Below are positions 1,290 through 52,734 of a stretch of DNA of 64,000 nt, one piece after another (position 1 is the first letter of the stretch; the number at the start of each line of letters is the position of its first letter). The stretch is from NCBI GenBank assembly GCA_963666515.2, contig OY762897.2, positions 1,408,001 through 1,472,000 of the forward strand, given 5' to 3'. Origin of the DNA: Candidatus Binatia bacterium. GTDB taxonomy: Bacteria; Desulfobacterota; Binatia; UBA9968; JAJDTQ01. Both the position numbers and the translations under genes were made by a program. The notes under the pieces were generated by a model. The model was not told where the DNA came from. It searched no databases and saw only the letters and a program-made list of their open reading frames with translations.

Positions 1290-3014
1290 TCAGGCTTTCG
1301 CCGTTCTACCGCTGAACCGGTCGAGCCAGGCGCCGCTCAGCAGCCAGGAATAGCCCCAGGTTCCGACGGCGATGAGCACGAACGCGGTCACGATGCCGGA
1401 TGTGCTCCCCTGGAGCGAGAAGCCCGGCACGTAGCCGAACAGGAAGGGCGCGAGGTAGAGGAACTTGGCGAACTTGAAGGCGCTGAACGCGGTCTTCCAC
1501 ATGTCGGCCTGGGCGATGGTGGCGCCGGTGAAGGCGGCGATGCATACCGGCGGGGTGATGTTCGAGTCCTGGGACAGCCAGTAGACGATCATGTGCGCCG
1601 CGATGGGGTTGGCGCCCAGCTCCGTCAGCGGCGGCACCGCCACGACTGCGGTGATCAGGTAGGCGGCGGTCACCGGCACGCCCATGCCGAGGATCAGGGA
1701 GGCCAAGGCGATGAGCAGGATGGTCAGCCACAGCCGGCCGTCGGCCAGCGCGATGACGATGTCGGCGAACGTGAGCACCAGGCCGCTGTAGGTCAGCACG
1801 CCGATGATGATGCCGATGACGCCCAGGGTGGCGCCGATCTTGAGGCTGTTCTCGGCCCCCGCGCGGGCCGCTTCCAGGAAGCGTTGCGGCCCGATCCTCG
1901 TGTCCGGGCGCAGCCAGCTCACCGCGATGCAGGTCGCCATGCCGAGTATGGCGGAATAGGCGGGCGAGTACCCCATCAGCATCAGCACGGTGATGACCGC
2001 GAGCGGCAGCACATAGTACCAGCCTCGCCCGAATATCTCTCCGGCGCAGGTCTCCGACTTCTCGCCCCGGATGCCGTGCTGCCTGGCCTCGTAGTGGACC
2101 ATGACGTAGACGCTGAAGAAGTACATGAGGGCCGGAAAGACGGCCACCAGCATGATGGCGGAGTAGGGCACGCCGGTAAGCTCCGACATGATGAAGCCGC
2201 CGGCGCCCATGATGGGAGGCATGAACATGCCGCCGATGGAGGCGGCGGGCTCGATGGCGCCGGCCACGTGCGGCTTGAAGCCGGCCTTCTTCATCATGGG
2301 GATGGTGAAGTTGCCGGTGGAGACGGTGTTGGCGATGGCGCTGCCGGAGATGGAGCCGAACAGGCCGCTGGCGATCACCGCCACCTTGGCCGGGCCGCCG
2401 ACCCGGTGGCCCACCGCGGCAAGCGGGAAGTCCACGAAGAACCGTTGCGCTCCGCTGGCTTCGAGGAAGGCGCCGAAGATGACGAACAGGATCACGTAGG
2501 TGGCCAGCACGTTAGCCATGATGCCGAAGACCCCGTCGCTCTTGTAGAAGATGCTGGTGCACAGGGCCGGGAAGGTATCCCCGGCATGGGAGATGAGGTC
2601 GGGCATGGAATCGCCGTAGACCCCGTAGAGCAGCATGACCCCGCCCAGGACGACGAAGACGTTCCCCACCACCCGGCGCGCCAGCTCCACGCCGATCAGC
2701 ACGCCCGCCACGGCGATCCATTGATCCAGGACGGTTTCGACGCCGACCCGGTAGTTGATGGCCTCGAAGTTCCACATCCAGTAGCCGATGCACACCACCG
2801 ACGCGGCCATCAGCAGATAGTCGGCCATCCGGCCCGGCCCGCTCCGGGAGCGGTAGAGGAGGAACACGAGCACATAGGTGATGACGACGTAGATGCCGCG
2901 ATGGTACTGGGTGGCCGCGGGAACGAGCACCGCGGAGTACGAATAGAACAGCACCAGGACGAGCGAGAGGACGTCGAACAGCCATCGCTCCGCGGTGTTC
3001 AGCTTTTCGAACAT
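1290..3014 (-). CDS. TRAP transporter fused (4TM/12TM) permease, TAXI type
   Basis: Polytopic membrane protein with GGPAKVAVIASGLFGSISGSAIAN, FMPPIMGAGGFIM and SNITPPVC motifs. Confidence 0.92.
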   Translation of the reverse strand: MFEKLNTAERWLFDVLSLVLVLFYSYSAVLVPAATQYHRGIYVVITYVLVFLLYRSRSGPGRMADYLLMAASVVCIGYWMWNFEAINYRVGVETVLDQWIAVAGVLIGVELARRVVGNVFVVLGGVMLLYGVYGDSMPDLISHAGDTFPALCTSIFYKSDGVFGIMANVLATYVILFVIFGAFLEASGAQRFFVDFPLAAVGHRVGGPAKVAVIASGLFGSISGSAIANTVSTGNFTIPMMKKAGFKPHVAGAIEPAASIGGMFMPPIMGAGGFIMSELTGVPYSAIMLVAVFPALMYFFSVYVMVHYEARQHGIRGEKSETCAGEIFGRGWYYVLPLAVITVLMLMGYSPAYSAILGMATCIAVSWLRPDTRIGPQRFLEAARAGAENSLKIGATLGVIGIIIGVLTYSGLVLTFADIVIALADGRLWLTILLIALASLILGMGVPVTAAYLITAVVAVPPLTELGANPIAAHMIVYWLSQDSNITPPVCIAAFTGATIAQADMWKTAFSAFKFAKFLYLAPFLFGYVPGFSLQGSTSGIVTAFVLIAVGTWGYSWLLSGAWLDRFSGRTAKA

Positions 3015-3037
3015 ACGATTTGCGTTCTTAGATGGCG

Positions 3038-3097
3038 CCCTTCGACTTCGCTTCGCTACGCCTGTCCTGAGCTCGTCGAAGGGCTCAGGGCGAACGG
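3038..3097. repeat. Intergenic palindromic repeat (CCCTTCGAC...GTCGAAGGG...CTCAGGGCGAACGG type)
   Basis: Inverted arms CCCTTCGAC (3038-3046) and GTCGAAGGG (3075-3083) between the SBP and permease genes; resembles a widespread extragenic palindrome family. Confidence 0.6.
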
Positions 3098-3122
3098 GAT
3101 TTTGAGAATGTCCGGCGGCTGC

Positions 3123-4094
3123 CTACATCACGCCCTTTTCCTTCCAGAAGCGTGTCGCGCCCGGGTGGAGCGGGGTCACGATGCCCTTGGTGCCGTCCTT
3201 GATGCTCATTTCCTTGAAGGTCTTCTTCTGGTTGCGCATGTAGGCGAGGCCCTCGTCCGTGTAGACCTTGGAGAGCAGGTCGTAGACGACATCCGCGGAC
3301 ACCTTGGAATTGGCGACCCAGAGCGTCGAGTCCTGGAACGAGGGGGCGGCCTTGTCGACGCCGCGGTAGGTGGCGGCGGGCACCGCCAGCCTGGCGAAGT
3401 AGGGGTACTTCTTGAAGAAGCCGCTGTCCTCGGCGTCCTTGGCGAGATCGACCAGTTCGATGTCGTTGGTCTGAGCGGCCATGATCACGGCGCCGCTGGG
3501 AAACGCGGTGAACAGCCAGAAGGCGTCGAGCTGGTTGTTGCCGAAGGCGGCGGCGGCATCGTTGTACCCCATGGCGTTGCGCTTGACCTTGTCCCAGATG
3601 CCCATGTGGGTGAAGAACAACTCGCAGTTGGCGAAGGCGCCGGAGCCCGCGTTGCCCACGCCGACCCGCTTGCCCACCAGGTCCTTGACACTGCGGATAC
3701 CCGACCCCTTGCGCACCACCAGTTGTGCCGGCGCCCCGTACAGGTAGGAGACTGCGAGCACGTCCGTGTATTTCCGCTTGTCGTTCTTCAAGCGGCCGTT
3801 GTGCCCGAGGTACACGTGACCGGAATAGACCACGCCGAACTGCATCCGGCCGGCGTTGACCTTGCGCAGGTTCTCCACCGAGCCGGCCGAGGACTGGGCC
3901 CTGACCGTGTAATCCTTGGACTGCTTGACCGGGCCGTAGGTCTGGATGGAGTTGGCCACGATCTGGAACGTGCCGCCCGCCGGGCCGCCGCCGAAGACCA
4001 TGCGTTTGCCGGCCAGGGCGGTAGCGGAAAAACCGAGGACGCAGGCCGTAAACGCCGCGCCTGCTACAAGGATCGCTCTGCGGCTCAAGCTCAT
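3123..4094 (-). CDS. TAXI family TRAP solute-binding subunit
   Basis: Signal peptide, GGPAGGTF, SAGSVEN, GKRVGVGNAGSG and PLHPGA motifs; AAGGAG RBS before ATG 4094. Confidence 0.92.
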   Translation of the reverse strand: MSLSRRAILVAGAAFTACVLGFSATALAGKRMVFGGGPAGGTFQIVANSIQTYGPVKQSKDYTVRAQSSAGSVENLRKVNAGRMQFGVVYSGHVYLGHNGRLKNDKRKYTDVLAVSYLYGAPAQLVVRKGSGIRSVKDLVGKRVGVGNAGSGAFANCELFFTHMGIWDKVKRNAMGYNDAAAAFGNNQLDAFWLFTAFPSGAVIMAAQTNDIELVDLAKDAEDSGFFKKYPYFARLAVPAATYRGVDKAAPSFQDSTLWVANSKVSADVVYDLLSKVYTDEGLAYMRNQKKTFKEMSIKDGTKGIVTPLHPGATRFWKEKGVM

Positions 4095-41318: not shown

Positions 41319-43352
41319 TCACCTTAGTTTTTGGCGCTTCCCGCCAAAGGAGCCCTGCAAGTGATTTTCGTCTACAATCTGTTCGAAAATCCCCGCCACC
41401 TCCTCTGCATTTGGTCCGTAAAAGTCTCCGTCAATATACCCCACTCTCAAGTCCATATTCGGGTTTGGCTTGTGATTTCCTTGTAGGAAAAACGACCCGT
41501 CGCTGTTCTGCCTCAGATTCTCCCAACTAAGTACTCTCCTCCCCGTATACGGGGTGGTGATCCCTGGCAAACCTGGAAGATCGTCCGCGACGGTCAAGGT
41601 CACGTCCAATGTATCGTCAGCGAAGTGGTATTTCACTTCCGACGTGCCGCCCAAACTACCACTTTTGTCGTACTCACCAACACGGCTCCACCACCCGAAC
41701 ATCCCACCACGCCATGTGGCGACAGCTTCGTTGCCAAGAGGTCTCGGAAAGTCTTCATACAACTGGCCGAACGCAAAACTGTGTGTCGAGTGGCCACTGA
41801 GAAGAGTCTCGTCAGGAATCAACATCATACCCCAAGCGCCGTACTCTCCCCAGTTGCCTACAGCGTTGAAACCATTGAACAGATCTTGCTCATCCGGCGT
41901 CAGGGGTTGTCCGCTGGCGAGTTTGTCAAGGGCCGAGGTCATCTTCGGCAAATCTGGACCAAACACAAAGTATCCATTCGAATCCGGTTGGTCCGACTGC
42001 TTAACTATTTTACCTTCCAATTCTTCCAGAACATATCCTGCGCTTACGGTTTGACGGCTTCCACCTCGACGATTGTCAATTGTACAAAGCCTACCTCTAC
42101 TGCCCACGCCGGGACAAATCACCTCGTCGCGTAACAATTCTTGAGGGCGGTTTATGTAATAATAGGTTACGTCACTCAGTTCAAAATGGTCTGCACTGAA
42201 GTGGGGCAAGCCAGCAGGAAGATCAGGGTAAGACGTCGTTTGGACCCGTGGCGGCAACTTGACAACAGATCCGTTTATCGTTTCCGTAGGTGCAGCCCAG
42301 TACGTTAAATTGTACTCCGGATAAACCGTGTTATCAAGGAGAAATAGGCGGTTTACGGCACAGCCACCCGCGTCTGAACACGTATAGACGCGCCGCGTTC
42401 CATCTGCTGCCTGTACTACCTTCTCTTCTCCCATTCTCAAGAAAAAGCCGCTTTCGTCGTCGGTCACATGTATTCTATCATTCGAATACCATTCCCAGGA
42501 ATTCGGCCCCGTAGCTCGCAAATTTTCGAACTCACATTGGCTATCTTGGGCGCACGTAACGAATTGTTTACGGGAACTTCCAAGCAACATCACAGGGATT
42601 TGTTCCCACGGATCCAAGTGGCCAGTGAGGAGTCCGCTAGCGCCTTCCAGGTATAGCGGTCGGCCGCTATCTTGATCGAGCTCGATGCTGAACAGACCCG
42701 CTTGGTCCTTGGTGACGGATATTATACGACAACCTGGACCACCAGAGGGACACAGTAAAAAGGTACCTTGTGACAATCTTCCACCAGTACCGGCGTTCAG
42801 AGTAAAGGGGATACTCCCGCTCGTCTCTGCAGTAAGCATTCCCCCGGAATATCGGGCCTCCCCTCCAGCCCCATCTACCGTCACCACACATGCGGCCTCG
42901 CCCGCACATGTAAACCGAACGCCGTCACGCTCCAACGTCTCACCAGGCTCCACTTGAAAACTTTCACTGCCGGTAAAAGTGTGCCCCGCCGGTAAACTAA
43001 CGGGTGTCCCTTGCGAGGGCGGCGGAACAGCGGCCACGTTGAGCATTCCGCCTGTATATCGCGCCTCTCCTCCAGCCGCGTCTACCGCCACCACACATGC
43101 GACCTCGCCTGCACACGTAAACCGAACGCCGCCACGCTCCAACGTCTCACCAGGCTCCACTTGAAAACTTTCACCACCGATAAGAGTGTGCCCCGCCGGC
43201 AATGCAACGGTTGTCCCTTGCGACGACGGGGGAACTGTTGTTCGCTGCCCGGCGCTACTGCATGCCACACCGACAAGCGTCATCATCAACGCGATATACC
43301 GGATCGAACCCATGTGACCTAGAAACGGCCATCTTCTATGACCTCTACTCAT
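41319..43352 (-). CDS. Surface lipoprotein with 69-aa tandem repeat and TbpB-like C-terminal beta-barrel
   Basis: Lipobox-like GVAC; C-terminus IDGDFYGPNAEEVAGIF...LQGSFGGKR; lower GC than the flanks. Confidence 0.7.
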   Translation of the reverse strand: MSRGHRRWPFLGHMGSIRYIALMMTLVGVACSSAGQRTTVPPSSQGTTVALPAGHTLIGGESFQVEPGETLERGGVRFTCAGEVACVVAVDAAGGEARYTGGMLNVAAVPPPSQGTPVSLPAGHTFTGSESFQVEPGETLERDGVRFTCAGEAACVVTVDGAGGEARYSGGMLTAETSGSIPFTLNAGTGGRLSQGTFLLCPSGGPGCRIISVTKDQAGLFSIELDQDSGRPLYLEGASGLLTGHLDPWEQIPVMLLGSSRKQFVTCAQDSQCEFENLRATGPNSWEWYSNDRIHVTDDESGFFLRMGEEKVVQAADGTRRVYTCSDAGGCAVNRLFLLDNTVYPEYNLTYWAAPTETINGSVVKLPPRVQTTSYPDLPAGLPHFSADHFELSDVTYYYINRPQELLRDEVICPGVGSRGRLCTIDNRRGGSRQTVSAGYVLEELEGKIVKQSDQPDSNGYFVFGPDLPKMTSALDKLASGQPLTPDEQDLFNGFNAVGNWGEYGAWGMMLIPDETLLSGHSTHSFAFGQLYEDFPRPLGNEAVATWRGGMFGWWSRVGEYDKSGSLGGTSEVKYHFADDTLDVTLTVADDLPGLPGITTPYTGRRVLSWENLRQNSDGSFFLQGNHKPNPNMDLRVGYIDGDFYGPNAEEVAGIFEQIVDENHLQGSFGGKRQKLR
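42835..43248. repeat. Two diverged direct repeats of 207 bp within the lipoprotein gene
   Basis: TCCCTTGCGA at 43007 and 43214, AGCATTCC at 42835 and 43042 (offset 207); duplicated LPAGHT...ESFQVEPGETLER.GVRFTCAGE unit. Confidence 0.9.
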
Positions 43353-45625: not shown

Positions 45626-46264
45626 TTACTTGGGCACCACGTAGTGCGGTAGTGACCGTTTTGCCTCGTCACAGGCGGCCTGTATGAAATTGACACCCGC
45701 CTCCACGGCGTTCGTTGAGCGACGGCTGAACGCGGTCCCGTACCGGATCAATAGCAGTGACAAGACGGACGTCGCTTCTTCGGCATCCCATTCACCCGCC
45801 CCGGACAACGTAGTCTGTATGGCGCCGTCAGCGGCCTTGAAGGCCGCCACAACCCGGTCTACGTCGCCCTTCTCTCCCAATGGCTTCCCGTCCAGTACGA
45901 GGCTTCTCGTGAGGAACAGGGACAACACGTACAGTGCTTCCCTGAAACCCCACTCGCTTGGGTTCAAGAGTTCCCGTTGAATGGTGTCTTCGGCAGCCGC
46001 CAAAACCGCCGTGAGGTCGAGGCGGTCACTCTGCGACTCGTTCCTGTTTTGTCCGTCACCGTCGCCCAATGCCGCCAAAGTGGCGAGCTCGATCTTCAAT
46101 GCCTGCGCGATGGCAATGGCCGACTTGAGCCGCGTAAGACTTCCGCCCTTCTCGATGCGCCGGATCGTTCGCCCATCCAGGACGGCCTCTTCGGCCAACC
46201 TTTCCGGGGTCCAACCAAGCTCCAGCCGCCTCCGCCGCATTAGTTCATGATTGACTCGGACCAT
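45626..46264 (-). CDS. XRE-family HTH protein
   Basis: RRRRLELGWTPERLAEEA...RTIRRIEKG...AIAQALKI; AGGT RBS. Confidence 0.8.
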   Translation of the reverse strand: MVRVNHELMRRRRLELGWTPERLAEEAVLDGRTIRRIEKGGSLTRLKSAIAIAQALKIELATLAALGDGDGQNRNESQSDRLDLTAVLAAAEDTIQRELLNPSEWGFREALYVLSLFLTRSLVLDGKPLGEKGDVDRVVAAFKAADGAIQTTLSGAGEWDAEEATSVLSLLLIRYGTAFSRRSTNAVEAGVNFIQAACDEAKRSLPHYVVPK

Positions 46265-46521
46265 GGCAGGACCTCTCCGTTCTTGGCCCGCAAAAGCGAT
46301 TCGTCGAACTGAGAACCTGTTACCAGAGCTTCAACGGCACTAGCTATGCCATAACTCGGCAATGAGAGGCATTTAATGACACTCAAAGAGGAGAACTGTA
46401 TGAATGATGCGTTCGACGGGCACGACTGAACCTGCATGGCACCATTGATCCCCACTTCATCGACGCGCGGCTACCGGATGGTCCGCCAAACAGCGGCCCC
46501 GTCGGCGCTTGTGACGCTCGC

Positions 46522-46689
46522 TCATTCGGTATCGTCCTCGGAAGCTTCACTTGAGCGCTGGTTGAGCTGATCGAGTTCCGCCATCGACTCGAGAATTCGG
46601 AACGCGGCCTCTTCGAAAATGTCGCAATACCGGTTCTCTTTCCACTCTGGTCCATCGGGAGTGACATCCAAGAAGACGTTCCAACCCTT
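46522..46689 (-). pseudogene. 3' part of an XRE-HTH gene interrupted by the IS1595 element
   Basis: Removing the element and one TSD restores ...EWKGW-NVFLDVTPDGPEW...DDTE-stop in frame. Confidence 0.75.
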
Positions 46690-46744
46690 GGGAATTATAT
46701 ACTAGTTTACCCAAGGTGGTGGACTAGAGACGGGGGGTATGCCG

Positions 46745-46990
46745 ATGAGAATACGTTGGTGGCAAATGGGTTTGCATGTTGACGCAGAGTCCGAGGAGGA
46801 ACACGAGTCACTGGTACAGATATGGAGAGCCCTGAAAGGGTTGAACAACTTAGGATTCGTCGTTGATGATAAGGGTTGGTCTATCCGAACCGTACCAATC
46901 GGAGTTGTCGAGGCAGACGACAAGGAGGTCGTCGTTACTGTCGATGAAGCGGTTGAAGTGAAGGAAAAGCCTCTTGGCGGTGGTTCCTGA
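46745..46990 (+). CDS. Small hypothetical protein (module A), paralogue of 49635-49886
   Basis: MRIRWWQMGLHVDAESEEEHESL vs MRVYWHYKYGLVLGPENEEEREHL; both preceded by GGGGGGTA-N5-ATG. Confidence 0.55.
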   Translation: MRIRWWQMGLHVDAESEEEHESLVQIWRALKGLNNLGFVVDDKGWSIRTVPIGVVEADDKEVVVTVDEAVEVKEKPLGGGS

Positions 46991-47110
46991 TACGTTGATG
47001 AGCCATTGAGAATCCAGCACTTTCAGAGGGCGATAAACGGTTAGTGCCTTTCTTAGTTTAGGGTAGTCCTGTTCAGGATAGTTGAGGTCGTAGTTAATGA
47101 GGTATCTCAT
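46850..47110 (-). CDS. Cas2/VapD-like ferredoxin-fold small protein (module A)
   Basis: MRYLINYDL N-terminal strand with Asp, LDSQWLI, IDSNDDLLVV. Confidence 0.65.
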   Translation of the reverse strand: MRYLINYDLNYPEQDYPKLRKALTVYRPLKVLDSQWLINVSGTTAKRLFLHFNRFIDSNDDLLVVCLDNSDWYGSDRPTLIINDES

Positions 47111-47188
47111 GGTTGGCGTGTATTGCACGGGGTATGGCGTCTGTCAAGAGGGTTTTGGACGGGTCGGTTTTGCTGTGGAGAAAGGGGG

Positions 47189-47218
47189 TTGACAGGGTAG
47201 TTGGGGGTTTAGTAGGGT
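47189..47218 (+). promoter_or_regulatory. Putative promoter of structured RNA 1
   Basis: TTGACA (47189-47194), 18-bp spacer, TAGGGT; predicted start falls near the first base of the closing stem. Confidence 0.45.
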
Positions 47219-47224
47219 GCGAGG

Positions 47225-47358
47225 TTGCCAACGTCTTTCGGGAATCCGCTAAGTCGGGTTACCCGCTGAATAAAACAGCCTCTAGCCCGGCTCGGACTAG
47301 CTACCTGAGCCTAGGTAAATAGGTGGGGACTTCCCTCATTCCTGAGAGATGTTGGCAA
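47225..47358 (+). ncRNA. Putative structured ncRNA 1 (about 134 nt)
   Basis: 21-bp closing stem (47225-47245 / 47338-47358) in which all three non-Watson-Crick pairs are G-U; nested inner stems; followed by hairpin CCGACACC/GGTGTCGG (47363-47383). Confidence 0.6.
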
Positions 47359-47412
47359 TGGCCCGACACCAACGGGGTGTCGGCGAAATGCCTTATGAGG
47401 GAGGTACGGGGT

Positions 47413-47811
47413 ATGGCCAGATGGTTCAAGAAACTGAAGAAAGAATGGGAGACGGACTTTGAGAAGAACAATCCGCGTCAAGCCGCGACAGTGAGATGGT
47501 TGAACTCGGAACGGGCGCAAGCTGGGGTGCTTGGTTTTTTCCTTATGCCGTTGTTGTGCACTTTTTCTTGGGTGTGCTTGGTAGGTTTTCTCTGGCTGGT
47601 CGTGCTTTTGCTCAGAGGTGCGGCGAGTGGAGGAATGTCGATTCTTGAGGCGTACATATGGTATGAACTGATATTTGCTTCGATGGGCATTGCTGTTTTG
47701 GTGGGGTTGGTCCACGGATTAGCGAAATGGTTCAAGGCAACAAGGAGGCGAGCGGTTCGGGAAGAGGAGGAAATCCGTCTTGCCGTGCGACAACAGAGAA
47801 TGAATGAGTGA
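47413..47811 (+). CDS. Hypothetical membrane protein (transposon passenger)
   Basis: Two to three hydrophobic segments; GGAGGT RBS before ATG 47413. Confidence 0.55.
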   Translation: MARWFKKLKKEWETDFEKNNPRQAATVRWLNSERAQAGVLGFFLMPLLCTFSWVCLVGFLWLVVLLLRGAASGGMSILEAYIWYELIFASMGIAVLVGLVHGLAKWFKATRRRAVREEEEIRLAVRQQRMNE

Positions 47812-47895
47812 TTGGCCAAGTCTTGATGCGTATCATTGCTGAGGTCTGTACGGTTGTAGAGTGGCGGAACGGGGTTCCGTGTGGGAGTGAAGGCG

Positions 47896-48252
47896 ATGAA
47901 AACATACAAGATATTGGTAGGTTCGTCGGGTCGGGTTGAAGCGGTAAAACAGGGGTGGTCATGGCCAGCATTCTTCTTCAACATGTTTTGGTTGCCGGTC
48001 AAGAAGTTGTGGGGATGGAGGGCGGTTTTCTGGGGCGCTTGGGCTGCGATGGCGGTGACGACCACTTTTCTTGGCGTTCAGGGTGTTGAAGGGGCGGTGA
48101 ATATAGTGGTTGGCATTGTTCTTGGTCAGGTGGGAAATCAGATGAGGGAGAAGAACCTTGTATCGAGGGGGTTTGAGGTTCGTGATACGGTTCAGGCCGG
48201 GAATGTTGAAGCGGCTTTGGCTGCGTGGGAGAAGGGTGGTTCTGTTAGTTAG
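47896..48252 (+). CDS. DUF2628-like membrane protein (transposon passenger)
   Basis: EAVKQGWSWPAFFF...W...KKLW and GN...L.SRGF motifs. Confidence 0.75.
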   Translation: MKTYKILVGSSGRVEAVKQGWSWPAFFFNMFWLPVKKLWGWRAVFWGAWAAMAVTTTFLGVQGVEGAVNIVVGIVLGQVGNQMREKNLVSRGFEVRDTVQAGNVEAALAAWEKGGSVS

Positions 48253-48280
48253 GTTATATGTTGGGGGCTTGGAGTAGGGC

Positions 48281-48511
48281 GAGTTGTTTCAGTTTCGGGC
48301 ACCCTGTGCCGCTAGTCTATGCGGACGAGAAAGCAAAACGCCTTCTTTCCGTACCAACTAGCGAAAATCCTCGTCCCATTTTTCAATGTGATCGAGGATG
48401 TAAATTTCCACCGGTAGCCCGGTGGGGGTTCTGGGTAGGTCATGAGGCTACCCTCCTTTCTGGCGACGGTGCGCCCCTGAAAGGTGAGGGTGCCCGAAAC
48501 TGAAGCAATTC
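48281..48511 (+). ncRNA. Putative structured ncRNA 2 (about 231 nt, multi-branch)
   Basis: 25-bp closing stem (48281-48305 / 48487-48511, two G-U pairs) enclosing five consecutive hairpins. Confidence 0.65.
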
Positions 48512-48590
48512 ATACTTACTATGTAAGAGTCTGCATATGTCGGTCAGAATTTCAAGATGCCTTAATGGGCTATTTTCGTAATGGGTTCGT

Positions 48591-48619
48591 TTGACATTCA
48601 TCCAGCTTTGGGGTAAACT
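48591..48619 (+). promoter_or_regulatory. Transposase promoter overlapping a TIR-like motif
   Basis: TTGACA-17 bp-TAAACT, then AGGAGG RBS; GGGTAAACTA is identical to the TIR core. Confidence 0.7.
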
Positions 48620-48646
48620 ACTTCCATAATTAGGAGGTAGGGAAAG

Positions 48647-49615
48647 ATGTCACAGAAGGCACCGGGCAAGGCATTTAGGCAGGGGCTGTCGATCAAGGCG
48701 TTGTTCAAGATGTTTCCTGATGACGAGACGGCGGAGAAGTGGTTTACTGAGGTCAGGTGGCCGGAAGGGGTTCGGTGTCCTAAGTGTGAGTCCGACAACA
48801 TCCAGGAGCGGGCTACGCGGAAGCCTCAGCCGTATCGTTGCCGGTCTTGCCGGAAGGACTTTTCAGTCAAAACGGATACCCTGATGCACAACTCGCCGTT
48901 GGGTTATCAGACGTGGGCGGTGGCGATTTATCTCATGACCACGGGATTGAAGGGGGTGTCGTCAATGAAGTTGCACCGGGATTTGGATGTGACGCAAAAG
49001 ACGGCGTGGCACTTGGCGATGAGAATCCGGGAGACCTTCGAGGACAAGGGGGTTGCGTTTGCTGGGCCGGTAGAGGTTGACGAGACGTATGTGGGTGGCA
49101 AGGAGAAGAACAAGCACGCGGACAAGAAGTTGAAGGCGGGGCGTGGGGCGGTGGGCAAGGCGGCGGTGGTGGGGATGAAGGACCGGGAGACTAACCGGGT
49201 GACGGCGGAGGCGGTTGAAAGCGTGGACGGGTTGACTTTGAAGGAATTCGTGCTGGACCAAGTGGTGGATGGTGCGAAGGTTTACACGGACGAGAACCGG
49301 GGGTATCAGGGGCTTCCGAACCACGAGACGGTGAATCACTCGGTCAAGGAGTACGTGGACGGGATGGCGCATACCAACGGGATTGAGTCCTTTTGGGCGG
49401 CATTGAAGCGGGGTTATCACGGTGTGTACCACAAGATGAGTGCGGAGCATCTGGACCGCTATGTTGGGGAGTTTGCGGGGCGACACAACATCAGGGACGA
49501 GGACACGGTAGTTCAGATGGCCGCTGTTGTACGAGGAATGGTCGGCAAGCGGTTGAGGTATAGGAATCTGGTTGCTTCACCGGAGAAGAAGATGCCGGGG
49601 AATGATGTCTTTTGA
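48647..49615 (+). CDS. IS1595 family transposase
   Basis: Zn ribbon CPKC...CRSC, HTH (SSMKLHRDLDVTQKTAW), VEVDETY, VYTDE, HTNGIESFW. Confidence 0.95.
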   Translation: MSQKAPGKAFRQGLSIKALFKMFPDDETAEKWFTEVRWPEGVRCPKCESDNIQERATRKPQPYRCRSCRKDFSVKTDTLMHNSPLGYQTWAVAIYLMTTGLKGVSSMKLHRDLDVTQKTAWHLAMRIRETFEDKGVAFAGPVEVDETYVGGKEKNKHADKKLKAGRGAVGKAAVVGMKDRETNRVTAEAVESVDGLTLKEFVLDQVVDGAKVYTDENRGYQGLPNHETVNHSVKEYVDGMAHTNGIESFWAALKRGYHGVYHKMSAEHLDRYVGEFAGRHNIRDEDTVVQMAAVVRGMVGKRLRYRNLVASPEKKMPGNDVF

Positions 49616-49634
49616 GAAGGGGGGGGGTAGCCCT

Positions 49635-49886
49635 ATGCGTGTTTATTGGCATTATAAGTACGGCTTGGTATTGGGTCCAGAAAATGAAGAAGAGAGGGAG
49701 CATCTTAAAGTAGTGCAAAAGGTGTTTGAGATACCTAAAGAGGGTGAACCCGAATACGTGGGGGTAGAGAGGAGAGCGAGAGAGCACCGTTACGCGATGT
49801 ATCAGAAGCGTCAGAGGGATGAGTCAGCGGGGAAGGTCCCTGACATAGGGGGCGTCGCGGATGAGGGTGGGGGGGTGCATGACTGA
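49635..49886 (+). CDS. Small hypothetical protein (module B), paralogue of 46745-46990
   Basis: Shared N-terminal W..GL....E.EEE.E.L motif. Confidence 0.55.
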   Translation: MRVYWHYKYGLVLGPENEEEREHLKVVQKVFEIPKEGEPEYVGVERRAREHRYAMYQKRQRDESAGKVPDIGGVADEGGGVHD

Positions 49887-50117
49887 TGCGTCGTCTATGG
49901 AGGTGATGATTAGTTCGATACACATTCCGTCGTCTAGGTCGAGTTTGGCAAGAATGGATCTAAGGATGGCCTTGGCTTCTTTGTCGCTTTTCACGGTCCT
50001 TTGAGACTGGAGTATGGCTTTGGCGTTGTAGTCGATCTCTACAACGGCTTTGTCGATACTGAGATAGATGGCGGTGTCGTCTATGTGAGCATCATAACTG
50101 ACAAGGTAGAGTTCCAT
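49824..50117 (-). CDS. Cas2/VapD-like small protein (module B)
   Basis: MELYLVSYD N-terminus, ILQSQ, LDLDD; GGAG RBS; similar to 46850-47110. Confidence 0.55.
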   Translation of the reverse strand: MELYLVSYDAHIDDTAIYLSIDKAVVEIDYNAKAILQSQRTVKSDKEAKAILRSILAKLDLDDGMCIELIITSIDDASVMHPPTLIRDAPYVRDLPR

Positions 50118-50259
50118 GACATGTTCTCCCTTCAGTGCGGGGATGGGCGTTTCCGTAGCACGGGGATGGGATTAGGGTCAAGGACTGGGACTGTGCGGCG
50201 GTTGATGGGTTGGTAGCCGCTGAGGAGAAGCCTGTGGTACAGGCAGGAAGCGATGTGTT

Positions 50260-50469
50260 TTGATGGCAAAGGATGGACGGGTCACAGCTGGGTCTATGGA
50301 TGGGAAAAGCGATGGTGTGAAGAAAAGCAAGCGGGGTCGTCCGGGGAGCCCGAAGTATCAGGAGTCCATCCGCATTGACGCCAATCCGGAAGCCGTTGCT
50401 AGGGCCATCATGAAGGGGCCACCAAAGCCGGATGGAGAGTGGCGCTATCTCAAGAACAAGGTTTGCTGA
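50260..50469 (+). CDS. Small basic protein at the right end of the IS1595 element
   Basis: KRGRP...IRIDANPEAVARAIMKGPPKP...WRYL; ends 9 nt before the right TIR. Confidence 0.55.
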   Translation: MMAKDGRVTAGSMDGKSDGVKKSKRGRPGSPKYQESIRIDANPEAVARAIMKGPPKPDGEWRYLKNKVC

Positions 50470-50503
50470 TAGGCAAGGTTGGGTAAACTAGTATATAATT
50501 CCC

Positions 50504-50850
50504 CAACCCTTCCACTCCCCGCTCAAACGAAACATGAACTCCGGGTGTGCCGGTAACTTGCCATCTGCACCATCGTAGCCCTCTTTAAGCCATGTCTTGA
50601 TGATGGACTTGGCGTTTCCCAGGAAGTCCTCCAGCTCGCCTAGCATCGCCCTGATGTCGCTGCGCAGAACCAACTCCTCGAAGGGAATGTCGAGCACGGT
50701 TGCGATATTCCTGGCCGTCTTGACGAACACCGGGTGACCACTTTCCGCTCGCCTATAGGTGGCTTCCGAGATCTCCTCCAAGAAACCCTTTTCGGCGATG
50801 AGGTCCATTACTCCGTTTATACTCAACCCCCGATGTTCTCTTTCGCGGCG
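50504..50850 (-). pseudogene. 5' part (itself N-terminally truncated) of the interrupted XRE-HTH gene
   Basis: REHRGLS...ISEATYRRAESG...NIATVLDIP HTH-like pattern; upstream sequence is replaced by IS1634 DNA. Confidence 0.7.
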
Positions 50851-52734
50851 CCGACCGGGGCAGGAGCTACTTCACCCACCGCCTGGTGCGCTCCGAGCGC
50901 AGCGGCGTGCGGGTGCGGCAGCGCACCCTGCTCAATCTCGGCAGTGACTTCGAGGTGGCCCCGGAACATTGGGCGGTGTTGTGCGCGCGCGTCGAACAAT
51001 TGATCGACCCGCAAGCGGTGCTGGTGGAGTTGGGGTGTTCGGAAGAGGTGGAACGGGAGGCCCAACGGATCGCCATGCAACTGGTGAGCCGGGCGCCTCG
51101 GGCGGAAGGCGGCGGAGGGGATGTGCAGGCCGTGGATGTGGACTCGTTGGAGTTGGTGCGCCCGCGCTCGGTGGGGGTGGAGCACGTCGGGCTTTGGGCC
51201 ATGGAGCAGGTGGGGCTGGACGAATGTTTGGAAGGCCTTGGGTTCAACGGTCGGCAAAGGGCGGCAGCCATGGCGTTGATCATCGGACGCATGGCACAGC
51301 CCGGATCGGAACGGGCCACTTGGCGGTGGTTGTGCGACCGCAGCGCTCTCGGCGAGTTGCTCGGCGTGGACTTCGAGAGCCTGAGCCTGATGCGGCTCTA
51401 CCGTGCCTCGGATGCGCTGATGGCCCATCGCAAGGCCGTCGAGAGCCACTTGTTCGAGCGGGTGACGGAGTTGTTTGGCCTGGGGCACACGGTGACGCTG
51501 TACGATCTCACCAACACCTTCTTCGAGGGCGAAGCTCAAGGCCAGCCCAAGGCCAGACGGGGGCACTCGAAAGAGAAGCGCAGCGACTGTCCGCTGCTCA
51601 CCCTGGGGCTGGTGCTCGACGGTTCCGGCTTCGTGCGCCGCTCCGAAGTGTTTGCCGGCAACGTCGATGAAGACAAGACCCTGGCGTCCATGCTTGAAGC
51701 CCTCAAGGCCCCCCGCCAGGCGCTGGTGGTGATGGATGCGGGCATTGCCACCGAGAACAACATCGCCTGGTTGCGCAGCCACGGCTACCGCTATCTGGTG
51801 GTCAGCCGCCAACGCACCCGGCTGTTCGATCCCGAACTGGCTACCGCCATCGAGACCCGTTCCCAACAAAAGGTTCACCTGCACCGGGTGGTCGATGAGG
51901 ACCACGACGAGGTGCGGCTTTACTGCTACTCCGAAGCTCGCGCCAAGAAAGAAGAAGGCATTTCCGAACGCTTTGCCGCACGCTTCGAGGGCGCCTTGCA
52001 AAAACTCCACGAGGGGCTCTCCCGCCCCCGCACCCGCAAGGCCCTCGACCATGTCTGGCAACGCATCGGGCGCATCCAGGAGCAAAGCCGGGGGGTCGCT
52101 CAGCATTACCAGGTCGAGGTCGTGGCCGACATCCAAGGCGACAAGGCCGTGGCCGTCACCTGGAAACGCCAGCCCCGCCCGGGCACCATGCTCACTCATC
52201 CCGGCGTCTATTGTCTGCGCACCAACCTCGACGACTGGGACCCGCAAGCCCTCTGGCGCACTTACACCATGCTCACCGACCTCGAAGCCGTATTCCGCTC
52301 CCTCAAGTCCGAACTCGGCCTGAGGCCCATCTTCCACCAAAAGCAGCACCGCTCCGACGGCCATTTGTTCATCACCGTCATCGCCTACCAACTCGTGCAG
52401 ATTGTCCGCCGCCGACTCGCCGCCTTGGGCGAGACCGCCAGTTGGACCACCTTGCGCCGCATACTCCAGGGCCAACACCGGGTCACCGCCACTTTCCGAC
52501 GCAAGGACGGCCGCACCCTGCATGTCCGCAAGGTCACCCAGGCCGAACCCCAGCAGCTTGAAATCTACAACGCTCTCCGCCTCGATTCCGCGCCTGGCGG
52601 TATCAAAAAGTTGATCGTCTGAACTCTCGGAATTCCCGTTGAATCACCAGAATGTAGTGCCAGAAGACCAAAATCGCCCCGCTAACACCCCGATTTATAA
52701 CGACTTTCAAATACCCTTGTTAAACCTGGGTTAG
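50844..52734 (+). mobile_element. IS1634-family element, left end missing
   Basis: Transposase followed by a plausible right end ...TGTTAAACCTGGGTTAG; no left end or native start codon visible. Confidence 0.75.
50886..52622 (+). CDS. IS1634 family transposase (5'-truncated by a few codons)
   Basis: RQRTLLNLG, LYDLTNTFFEG, RGHSKEKRSDC, VMDAGI, LEAVFRSLKSELGLRPIFHQ. Confidence 0.88.
   Translation: MRSERSGVRVRQRTLLNLGSDFEVAPEHWAVLCARVEQLIDPQAVLVELGCSEEVEREAQRIAMQLVSRAPRAEGGGGDVQAVDVDSLELVRPRSVGVEHVGLWAMEQVGLDECLEGLGFNGRQRAAAMALIIGRMAQPGSERATWRWLCDRSALGELLGVDFESLSLMRLYRASDALMAHRKAVESHLFERVTELFGLGHTVTLYDLTNTFFEGEAQGQPKARRGHSKEKRSDCPLLTLGLVLDGSGFVRRSEVFAGNVDEDKTLASMLEALKAPRQALVVMDAGIATENNIAWLRSHGYRYLVVSRQRTRLFDPELATAIETRSQQKVHLHRVVDEDHDEVRLYCYSEARAKKEEGISERFAARFEGALQKLHEGLSRPRTRKALDHVWQRIGRIQEQSRGVAQHYQVEVVADIQGDKAVAVTWKRQPRPGTMLTHPGVYCLRTNLDDWDPQALWRTYTMLTDLEAVFRSLKSELGLRPIFHQKQHRSDGHLFITVIAYQLVQIVRRRLAALGETASWTTLRRILQGQHRVTATFRRKDGRTLHVRKVTQAEPQQLEIYNALRLDSAPGGIKKLIV

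Follow-up and report, generated by a model that had tools for sequence, protein, structure and literature searches.

To judge from its pattern of substitution, the strongly folding element at 48281-48511 of the window (by which the whole analysed stretch of 64,000 nt is meant) contains a conserved protein-coding gene on the minus strand, and the reading given most weight here, with a probability of about 0.55, is that the mRNA of this small gene, carried as cargo of a transposon, would be locked by its own folding in the manner of type I toxin mRNAs. The preliminary description had regarded the element as an intergenic six-way junction and had proposed a functional RNA (guide or scaffold, antitoxin, or ribozyme) tied to a DDE transposon. 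Part of this proposal stood, as the fold was found not to be due to chance, to show compensatory changes in four genomes and to lie within or beside IS1595-type sequences in three of them. The stretch is not intergenic, however, since it holds a conserved minus-strand ORF of 43 aa, and the notion of a non-coding guide, scaffold or ribozyme was given up, because the interior is a coding gene with hundreds of relatives and the plus strand is the better-folding one in only one of four copies.

Fold, coding content and conservation of the element

With RNAfold the plus strand of 48281-48511 was folded into a closing helix of 25 bp, two of its pairs being G-U, around five hairpins (MFE -123.9 kcal/mol), all at the places given in the preliminary description. 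None of 200 dinucleotide shuffles (mean -71.65, sd 4.73) equalled this stability, which corresponds to z = -11.05; for the minus strand an MFE of -115.0 and a z of -9.81 were obtained, again equalled by 0/200 shuffles. In the closing stem, bases 1-25 pair with bases 207-231 of the element, the arms being a 25-nt inverted repeat with 92% complementarity and a spacing of 181 nt, and both G-U pairs are G-U in the plus-strand reading. Strand-biased mutation was considered as the origin of these two pairs and ruled out, as the loss of C that extends over the transposon is absent from the 231-nt module, where the GC skew is 0.03. In a cmscan of 46000-51000 against Rfam 15 (E<=1) the element had no match, and one weak unrelated match was recorded at 46171-46233. 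Contigs of four runs (e.g. X1 record 1, X2 record 10) match the module sequence without any difference, and no joint removing 48281-48511 was found in them, a comparison at contig level that is blind to rare variants. The coordinates of all features are compiled in Table 1.

Table 1. Features of the folded element and its carrier transposon in the window, and copies of the module in related genomes.
Feature	Position	Strand	Remarks	Basis
Small-protein gene, 43 codons + TAG stop	complement(48312..48443)	-	product P0001, MTYPEPPPGYRW...CFLVRID	translation
Shine-Dalgarno (SD) region GAAAGGAGGG	48451..48460	-	AGGAGG-type, end 7 nt before ATG	read from sequence
Anti-SD CCUUUC (minus-strand sense)	48479..48484	-	partner GAAAGG of SD region; hairpin 48455-48484
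Closing stem, left arm	48281..48305	.	3' flank of small gene in mRNA sense	fold and inverted-repeat listing
Closing stem, right arm	48487..48511	.	5' flank of small gene in mRNA sense	fold and inverted-repeat listing
Hairpin CGCTAGT/ACTAGCG	48310..48363	.	F/Y-A-S codons paired to stop-codon region	RNAfold, both strands
Hairpin ATCCTCG/CGAGGAT	48367..48399	.	within coding sequence; consensus helices 5 and 6, 4 pairs changed on both sides
Hairpin CCACCGG/CCGGTGG	48403..48430	.	in PPGYRW codons; consensus helix 4, 8 pairs, 2 changed on both sides
Left terminal inverted repeat	46690..46714	+	preceded by 8-bp target duplication CAACCCTT (46682-46689)
Right terminal inverted repeat	50479..50503	+	25 nt, 100% complementary to left; followed by CAACCCTT (50504-50511)
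IS1595/ISXO2-like transposase, 322 aa	48647..49615	+	divergent from small gene	Pfam match
Sigma-70-like promoter site	48591-48619	+	before transposase gene	consensus scan
Passenger ORF, DUF2628 membrane protein	47881..48252	+	end 28 nt before module
69-aa ORF	50260..50469	+	common to G004 sister transposon, 63% identity over 60 aa	tblastn, blastn
Module copy in G003	L003 1277-1532		256 nt
Module copy in G004	L009 1498-1763
Module copy in G020	L042 1468-1728		closing stem worn down to ~16 bp

The product of the minus-strand gene contains seven basic and two acidic residues, its longest uncharged run is AFCFLV, and it has no hydrophobic stretch. An AF2 model (pLDDT 92.6) presents a small sheet with strands at residues 10-15, 17-19, 25-27 and 36-41 and one helical turn. 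A plus-strand ORF of 81 aa (48258-48503) was rejected as a second gene candidate, being absent from the G003 and G004 copies.

The same module was found once each in three further genomes of the same genus, G003, G004 and G020, and all three copies retain the frame, the SD region and a recognisable peptide. The genome to which the window belongs, G000, has a single copy, by DNA as well as by protein profile, and a search of 123 genomes of the order and of the metagenome collection added no more copies. The 64 metagenome matches to the arm pattern were all single, none with a partner arm or the ORF, and were attributed to chance; single arm matches with two mismatches within the order were likewise dismissed, as they occurred at about the frequency of a reversed control pattern and six inspected ones proved to be unrelated sequence. 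Order-level tallies of arm pattern and profile include the unpublished genomes G074 and G069, on which no claim depends. Homology among the four copies begins and ends at the outer edges of the arms, and the 300-nt flanks on each side are dissimilar with the sole exception of a 32-nt match (E 2.5e-4). A target duplication of any length was found at none of the four copies; in the window no direct repeat flanks the 231-nt unit, as had been noticed in the preliminary description.

The minus-strand consensus of the four sequences comprises 52 pairs, with 94% of the cells paired, and 13 of these pairs were changed on both sides yet still paired. Shuffled controls gave 6.0 such changes (sd 1.6; 0/500 reached 13) and controls with slid partners 0-5, the latter comparison being one in which the consensus is favoured because it came from the tested sequences; the whole set consists of only four sequences, G004 and G020 being close (79% nucleotide identity in the coding sequence). 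Both arms of the closing stem are conserved, with two-sided changes, in G003, G004 and G020: 11 of 17 consensus pairs are invariant, and at the four variable positions both arms are altered with pairing retained. The 11 invariant pairs fit recognition of a specific sequence equally well as mere pairing. The remaining two-sided changes are situated in hairpins of the coding sequence, and the accompanying replacements in the protein (P-P...R-W to R-P...R-L, S to W) go together with pairing. The 231-nt structure is real and under selection.

As to the strand, the consensus energy was lower for the minus strand (-67.1, covariation term -2.12) than for the plus strand (-58.8, -0.75), and the MFE was lower on the minus strand in three of the four copies (G003 -138.6 vs -124.0, G004 -146.1 vs -133.5, G020 -136.0 vs -129.0), the exception being the window copy. 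The strands were not separated by G-U cells (14 on the minus, 13 on the plus strand) or by A-C cells (five each). The SD region is predicted to be paired in all four modules, with a mean P(unpaired) of 0.09-0.20 (0.09 in the window copy), and an equivalent of the hairpin formed by anti-SD and SD is predicted in each of them.

The carrier transposon and its surroundings

The carrier of the module is an IS1595-family transposon of 3,814 bp (46690-50503), and the module is cargo in its left part. The IS1595 family is characterised by 8-bp target duplications and includes subgroups with passenger genes, as described in ISfinder-based reviews. All marks of membership were present here, i.e. the transposase type with its zinc ribbon, terminal repeats and the 8-bp duplication; the transposase exceeded the Pfam cut-offs of DDE_Tnp_IS1595 (E 2e-40) as well as of Zn_ribbon_IS1595 (E 2.3e-9). 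The location of the element before the promoter of the transposase gene, reported in the preliminary description, was confirmed by a sigma-70-like site (Table 1). In G004 a sister transposon of 4,103 bp was recognised. Its terminal repeats are those of the window copy apart from 2-3 changes, it has an 8-bp duplication of its own (CAAATTTT), and its transposase is 84% identical to that of the window (324 aligned residues). There the module lies ~75 nt inside the left end, so that its distance to this end differs between the two sisters, and the passenger genes are unrelated, the cargo of G004 otherwise consisting of a methylase-HNH fusion and a HARE-HTH-like ORF. The fusion (L037 7832-9250), 472 aa long, joins an N6/N4 DNA methylase (E 1.3e-38) to an HNH nuclease domain (E 3e-12 to 4e-14) at the C-terminal end of the protein. 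Members of the IS1595 family with a length of roughly 1 kb exist, and the two carriers of 3.8-4.1 kb are several times longer; their cargo differs, and the module is common to both.

The arms of the module are unlike the carrier's own terminal repeats. Small gene and transposase gene are divergent in the window and in G004, whereas in G003 they stand in tandem, with the module directly downstream of a broken IS1595 gene, and recognisable IS ends were not found in that genome. G020 has no transposase within 6 kb of the module, and in G438 the small gene, which lacks an enclosing repeat, is convergent with a distant IS1595 transposase gene. The link between module and transposase is loose. Among 56 stretches compared, IS1595 transposase genes adjoin the small gene in four; on the same strand, an unknown protein of 127 aa precedes the small gene in 14 stretches and a pair of XRE and ImmA/IrrE genes in 10, and DUF2188 comes after it in 13. 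Next to the module of G020 lie two ORFs (L057 5824-7397) that look by eye like a kinase of the HipA type (435 aa) and a small partner of the XRE type, which would make this a toxin-antitoxin neighbourhood.

Several further observations were made on the transposon and its flanks. Between 46500 and 50500 of the window the plus strand is rich in G and poor in C (GC skew +0.17 to +0.39), the flanks being mostly negative. A comparison of the transposase genes of the window and G004 gave 127 losses of C (C>T in 55 cases, C>G in 52 and C>A in 20) against 25 gains; of the 220 differences, 148 fall on third codon positions. Near one transposon end a 92-aa ORF (46850-47128, minus strand) matched Pfam Cas2 at E 0.0013 with 19.3 bits, below the cut-off of 23.8; near the other a 97-aa ORF (49824-50117, minus strand) had no Pfam match. 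Both overlap plus-strand ORFs and are candidate genes. The transposon was apparently inserted into a minus-strand gene (50488-50826 and 46383-46714, both minus strand), with a minus-strand ORF of 112 aa ending in the right terminal repeat and more open frames left of the left repeat. Beside the transposon, a plus-strand ORF of 578 aa (50886-52622) appears by eye to encode an IS4/IS1634-type transposase; if so, a cluster of mobile elements would be present. A tandem direct repeat of 194 nt in two copies, 88% identical, is located at 42835-43235.

A family of small proteins

A profile of four sequences, compared with 1.84 billion proteins, recovered 682 representative clusters (50% identity) at E<=1e-3, of which 37 also reached E<=1e-10; most members are 40-50 aa long. 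With a profile of 32 sequences, 1742 clusters (90% identity) at E<=1e-3 were obtained among 2149 candidates; the named entries are 'hypothetical', one of them from a Microcystis phage. Of the 32 members compared with Pfam, NCBIfam, PHROGs and PADLOC, at most one matched any given family there, and none of the ten longer proteins that match the family profile has a Pfam domain. Weak profile matches in 14 genomes of the order (E 7e-5 to 9e-4) were treated as unrelated local similarity; for 13 of them the surrounding open frame has 286-420 aa, and for the remaining one 111 aa.

Pairwise comparison of 33 genes (GC 0.29-0.62) yielded 0.39, 0.37 and 0.66 differences per site at codon positions 1, 2 and 3. 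For the four module genes dN/dS was 0.16-0.38 in the three of six pairs in which dS was unsaturated, and was omitted in the three pairs that include G000, where dS was saturated. Substitution of the coding type together with hundreds of relatives argues that the interior of the element is a gene and against a non-coding RNA. This large family of ~45-residue proteins occurs in phages, integrative elements and transposons, and is nameless in the four libraries searched; owing to their small size, such proteins can be missed by gene callers.

Searches with the structure of the 43-aa product gave no match below E 6.8 in the PDB with Foldseek and a best Z of 2.5 with VIA-align wide, and in a search of the PDB by sequence the best E was 0.07. 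Matches in BFVD were only uncharacterised phage proteins that resemble family members (E 0.06-0.09), and those in the ESM Atlas were unnamed clusters only (0.87-0.88). A known DNA-binding fold was matched neither in structure nor in sequence, one of the 32 members matching Pfam AP2 at E 0.0023. Our guess is that the protein might bind nucleic acids and serve mobile elements as a regulatory or addiction factor, on the grounds of its basic, aromatic-rich sheet and of its position after regulator pairs of the XRE/ImmA type in other elements.

Coding sequences of the family fold better than neighbouring segments of the same length, with a mean z relative to shuffles of -2.01 (n=30) against -0.37 (n=104), and a Mann-Whitney test gave p 2.6e-7, a value for related genes that are not independent. 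The 30 members had been picked by eye from 50 loci before computing, 18 near-duplicates or doubtful starts being omitted and two loci of the same genus being computed separately, and the 104 control segments were taken from 27 of the loci, at a distance of 900 or 1500 nt. The coding sequences of the four modules have z values from -3.0 to -5.5. A helix common to the whole family was not found (highest mean pair probability 0.27), and part of the foldability derives from codons such as AAA-GCU-UUU (K-A-F).

An inverted repeat that encloses the ORF and stands clearly above shuffles was present in three of 50 genome loci, namely G003, G004 and L087. The repeat of the former two is 27 nt long, whereas the controls reach 14 nt at most. 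L087, from a Peribacteria MAG, has a 22-nt repeat and a module of 326 nt (2871-3196) around a homologous ORF of 49 aa, with an MFE of -101.9 and a z of -9.1 (mononucleotide shuffles). The 16-nt repeat of L063 is marginal alone (control maximum 15), but it also exists in the viral contigs L176 and L177 at equal distances and with one compensated outer pair. Since the arms of the L087 and L063 lineages are unrelated in sequence to those of the window, pairing would be the property under selection, which speaks against recognition sites of one recombinase; in at least three lineages the gene is predicted to be wrapped by an end-to-end RNA helix. A comparison of upstream with downstream flanks by RNAduplex had no discriminating power, even the known stems of L062 and L091 being inconspicuous in it. 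Both viral copies (L176 1483-1620, L177 959-1096), with their 16-nt repeat intact, have an in-frame stop where relatives have Q or R (PPGY*W), which could be due to a pseudogene, a sequencing variant or read-through.

A proposed locked mRNA and alternative readings

If the mRNA is locked by its own folding, the six-way junction would be the fold of the minus-strand transcript of the small gene, in which the 25-bp helix would join the 5' flank to the 3' flank, the upstream CCUUUC anti-SD would mask the SD region, the start codon would lie in a hairpin loop, and the other hairpins would fall in the coding sequence, where one of them would cover the stop codon. Folded in this way, the mRNA would be stable, with little translation before removal or melting of the terminal helix or of the anti-SD hairpin, for example through 3' trimming or through cleavage of the 25-bp duplex, which is a plausible substrate of RNase III. 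Release by RNase III would fit G003 and G004, where a same-strand gene ends only 6 and 25 nt, respectively, before the module. The ORF, its family, the statistics of the fold, the covariation and the transposon are shown; the transcribed strand, the lock on translation, the way in which it is released and what the protein does are inferred. Upstream of the small gene, between module and transposase, only a weak minus-strand promoter site (9/12, 48653-48626) was detected with a consensus that may not fit the host, and terminator-like sites for the gene numbered 0. Evidence against a locked mRNA is seen in the better folding of the plus strand in the window copy, in the lack of an enclosing repeat in most family members, and in a protein that is not hydrophobic and is accompanied by no visible antisense RNA gene.

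Type I toxin mRNAs such as hok and aapA are described as being kept inert by long-distance pairing of 5' and 3' ends and by anti-SD hairpins (PMC6733600); in hok/Sok and aapA/IsoA an ORF of ~30-50 codons is contained in a transcript of 200-400 nt, in which the SD is masked by CU-rich anti-SD elements and which remains inert until processed. The module resembles these mRNAs in its predicted 25-bp end-to-end helix and its conserved anti-SD hairpin. It differs from them in that its anti-SD is located upstream of the SD and not in the 3' end, that most relatives of the small protein are without the terminal helix, that its product lacks a hydrophobic stretch and is predicted to form a four-strand sheet, and that no antisense RNA gene or promoter was detected at the module with a consensus that may not fit the host. 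Because its peptide is not of the hydrophobic kind and an antitoxin RNA did not come to light with a promoter consensus that may not fit the host, the module is placed outside the type I toxin-antitoxin class as defined, in spite of which it may, by analogy, work like a type I toxin mRNA.

Two other kinds of elements invite comparison. With MITEs, which the preliminary description had named as the alternative that would contradict its proposal, the module shares a length of ~230-270 bp, inverted repeats as boundaries (the 25-nt arms), strong self-folding and a location beside an IS; a MITE is nonetheless contradicted by the single copy per genome, the missing target duplication at all four copies and the coding capacity for a conserved 43-aa protein. 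In RNase III stalks, as in rRNA operons and phage early transcripts, long inverted repeats form a cleavable duplex of 20 bp or more. Similarly, the inverted repeats of the module bracket a unit that could be released by cutting of the duplex, but this unit is the mRNA for a 43-aa protein, and cleavage in the module is hypothetical.

Instead of a protein, a structured plus-strand RNA could be the product, which would either act on the small gene as a cis-antisense regulator ('antitoxin') or halt read-through from the passenger genes into the transposase, be it by a roadblock or by processing. Such an RNA would agree with the stronger plus-strand fold of the window copy, with the two closing-stem pairs that are G-U on this strand, and with the location of the module between plus-strand passenger genes and transposase promoter in the window and in G004, and every helix of one strand is mirrored on the other. 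We nevertheless hold it to be unlikely: the minus strand is the better one in three of four copies and in the consensus, the interior is under protein-coding selection, Rfam provided no match, no plus-strand promoter-like site was found in or just before the module with a consensus that may not fit the host, the orientation to the transposase varies (divergent, tandem, convergent, absent within 6 kb), and nothing found points towards an antisense antitoxin. No greater credit is given to the module as an autonomous mobile cassette, coding and MITE-like and nested in the transposon, in which the arms would serve as terminal repeats for a trans-acting recombinase and the gene would be cargo. The abrupt end of homology at the outer ends of the arms, the four different contexts in four genomes, the different distances to the left end amid unrelated passengers in the sister transposons and the largely invariant arm sequence would be expected of such a cassette. 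Against it stand the single copy per genome, with no extra one in the 123 genomes of the order or the metagenome collection, the missing target duplications, arms that do not resemble the terminal repeats of the transposon, and the unrelated sequence of the repeats in L087 and L063; besides, with a dS of at least 0.76 between the copies, neutral flanks would be unrecognisable anyway.

The least probable of the alternatives regards the inverted repeat as a pair of binding sites in double-stranded DNA, at which a regulator, possibly the small protein itself, would repress the gene, with the RNA fold as a by-product. The invariance of 11 of 17 stem pairs despite saturated or nearly saturated synonymous sites, the small, basic and beta-rich protein, and the frequent position of family members after XRE/ImmA regulator pairs are in line with it. 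Yet the four variable stem positions change on both arms with pairing retained, and the internal hairpins and the anti-SD pairing covary, which a DNA-site model does not predict; inverted operators 181 bp apart around a whole gene are unusual, and the search for DNA-binding folds yielded only the AP2 match of one member mentioned above.

The best reading remains that the module is a variation on a known regulatory theme, a folded small-protein gene of an unnamed and widespread family linked to mobile elements. A bolder version, to which we ascribe only a small probability, would see in it a new addiction or regulatory cassette, in which a soluble beta-sheet protein of 43 aa would be silenced by a closed mRNA and freed by cleavage of the 25-bp duplex, which would also excise the unit from longer transcripts; the cassette would aid the persistence of IS1595-type transposons and other mobile elements, and the family of ~1,700 clusters would represent small proteins of mobile elements controlled by the folding of their own mRNA. 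One false lead has been removed, namely a guide RNA or ribozyme serving a DDE transposase. Should the folding control translation, the principle by which type I toxin mRNAs are regulated would hold for a protein that is not a membrane protein as well, and the module would provide a compact and testable model for the control of transposon cargo genes at the level of mRNA.
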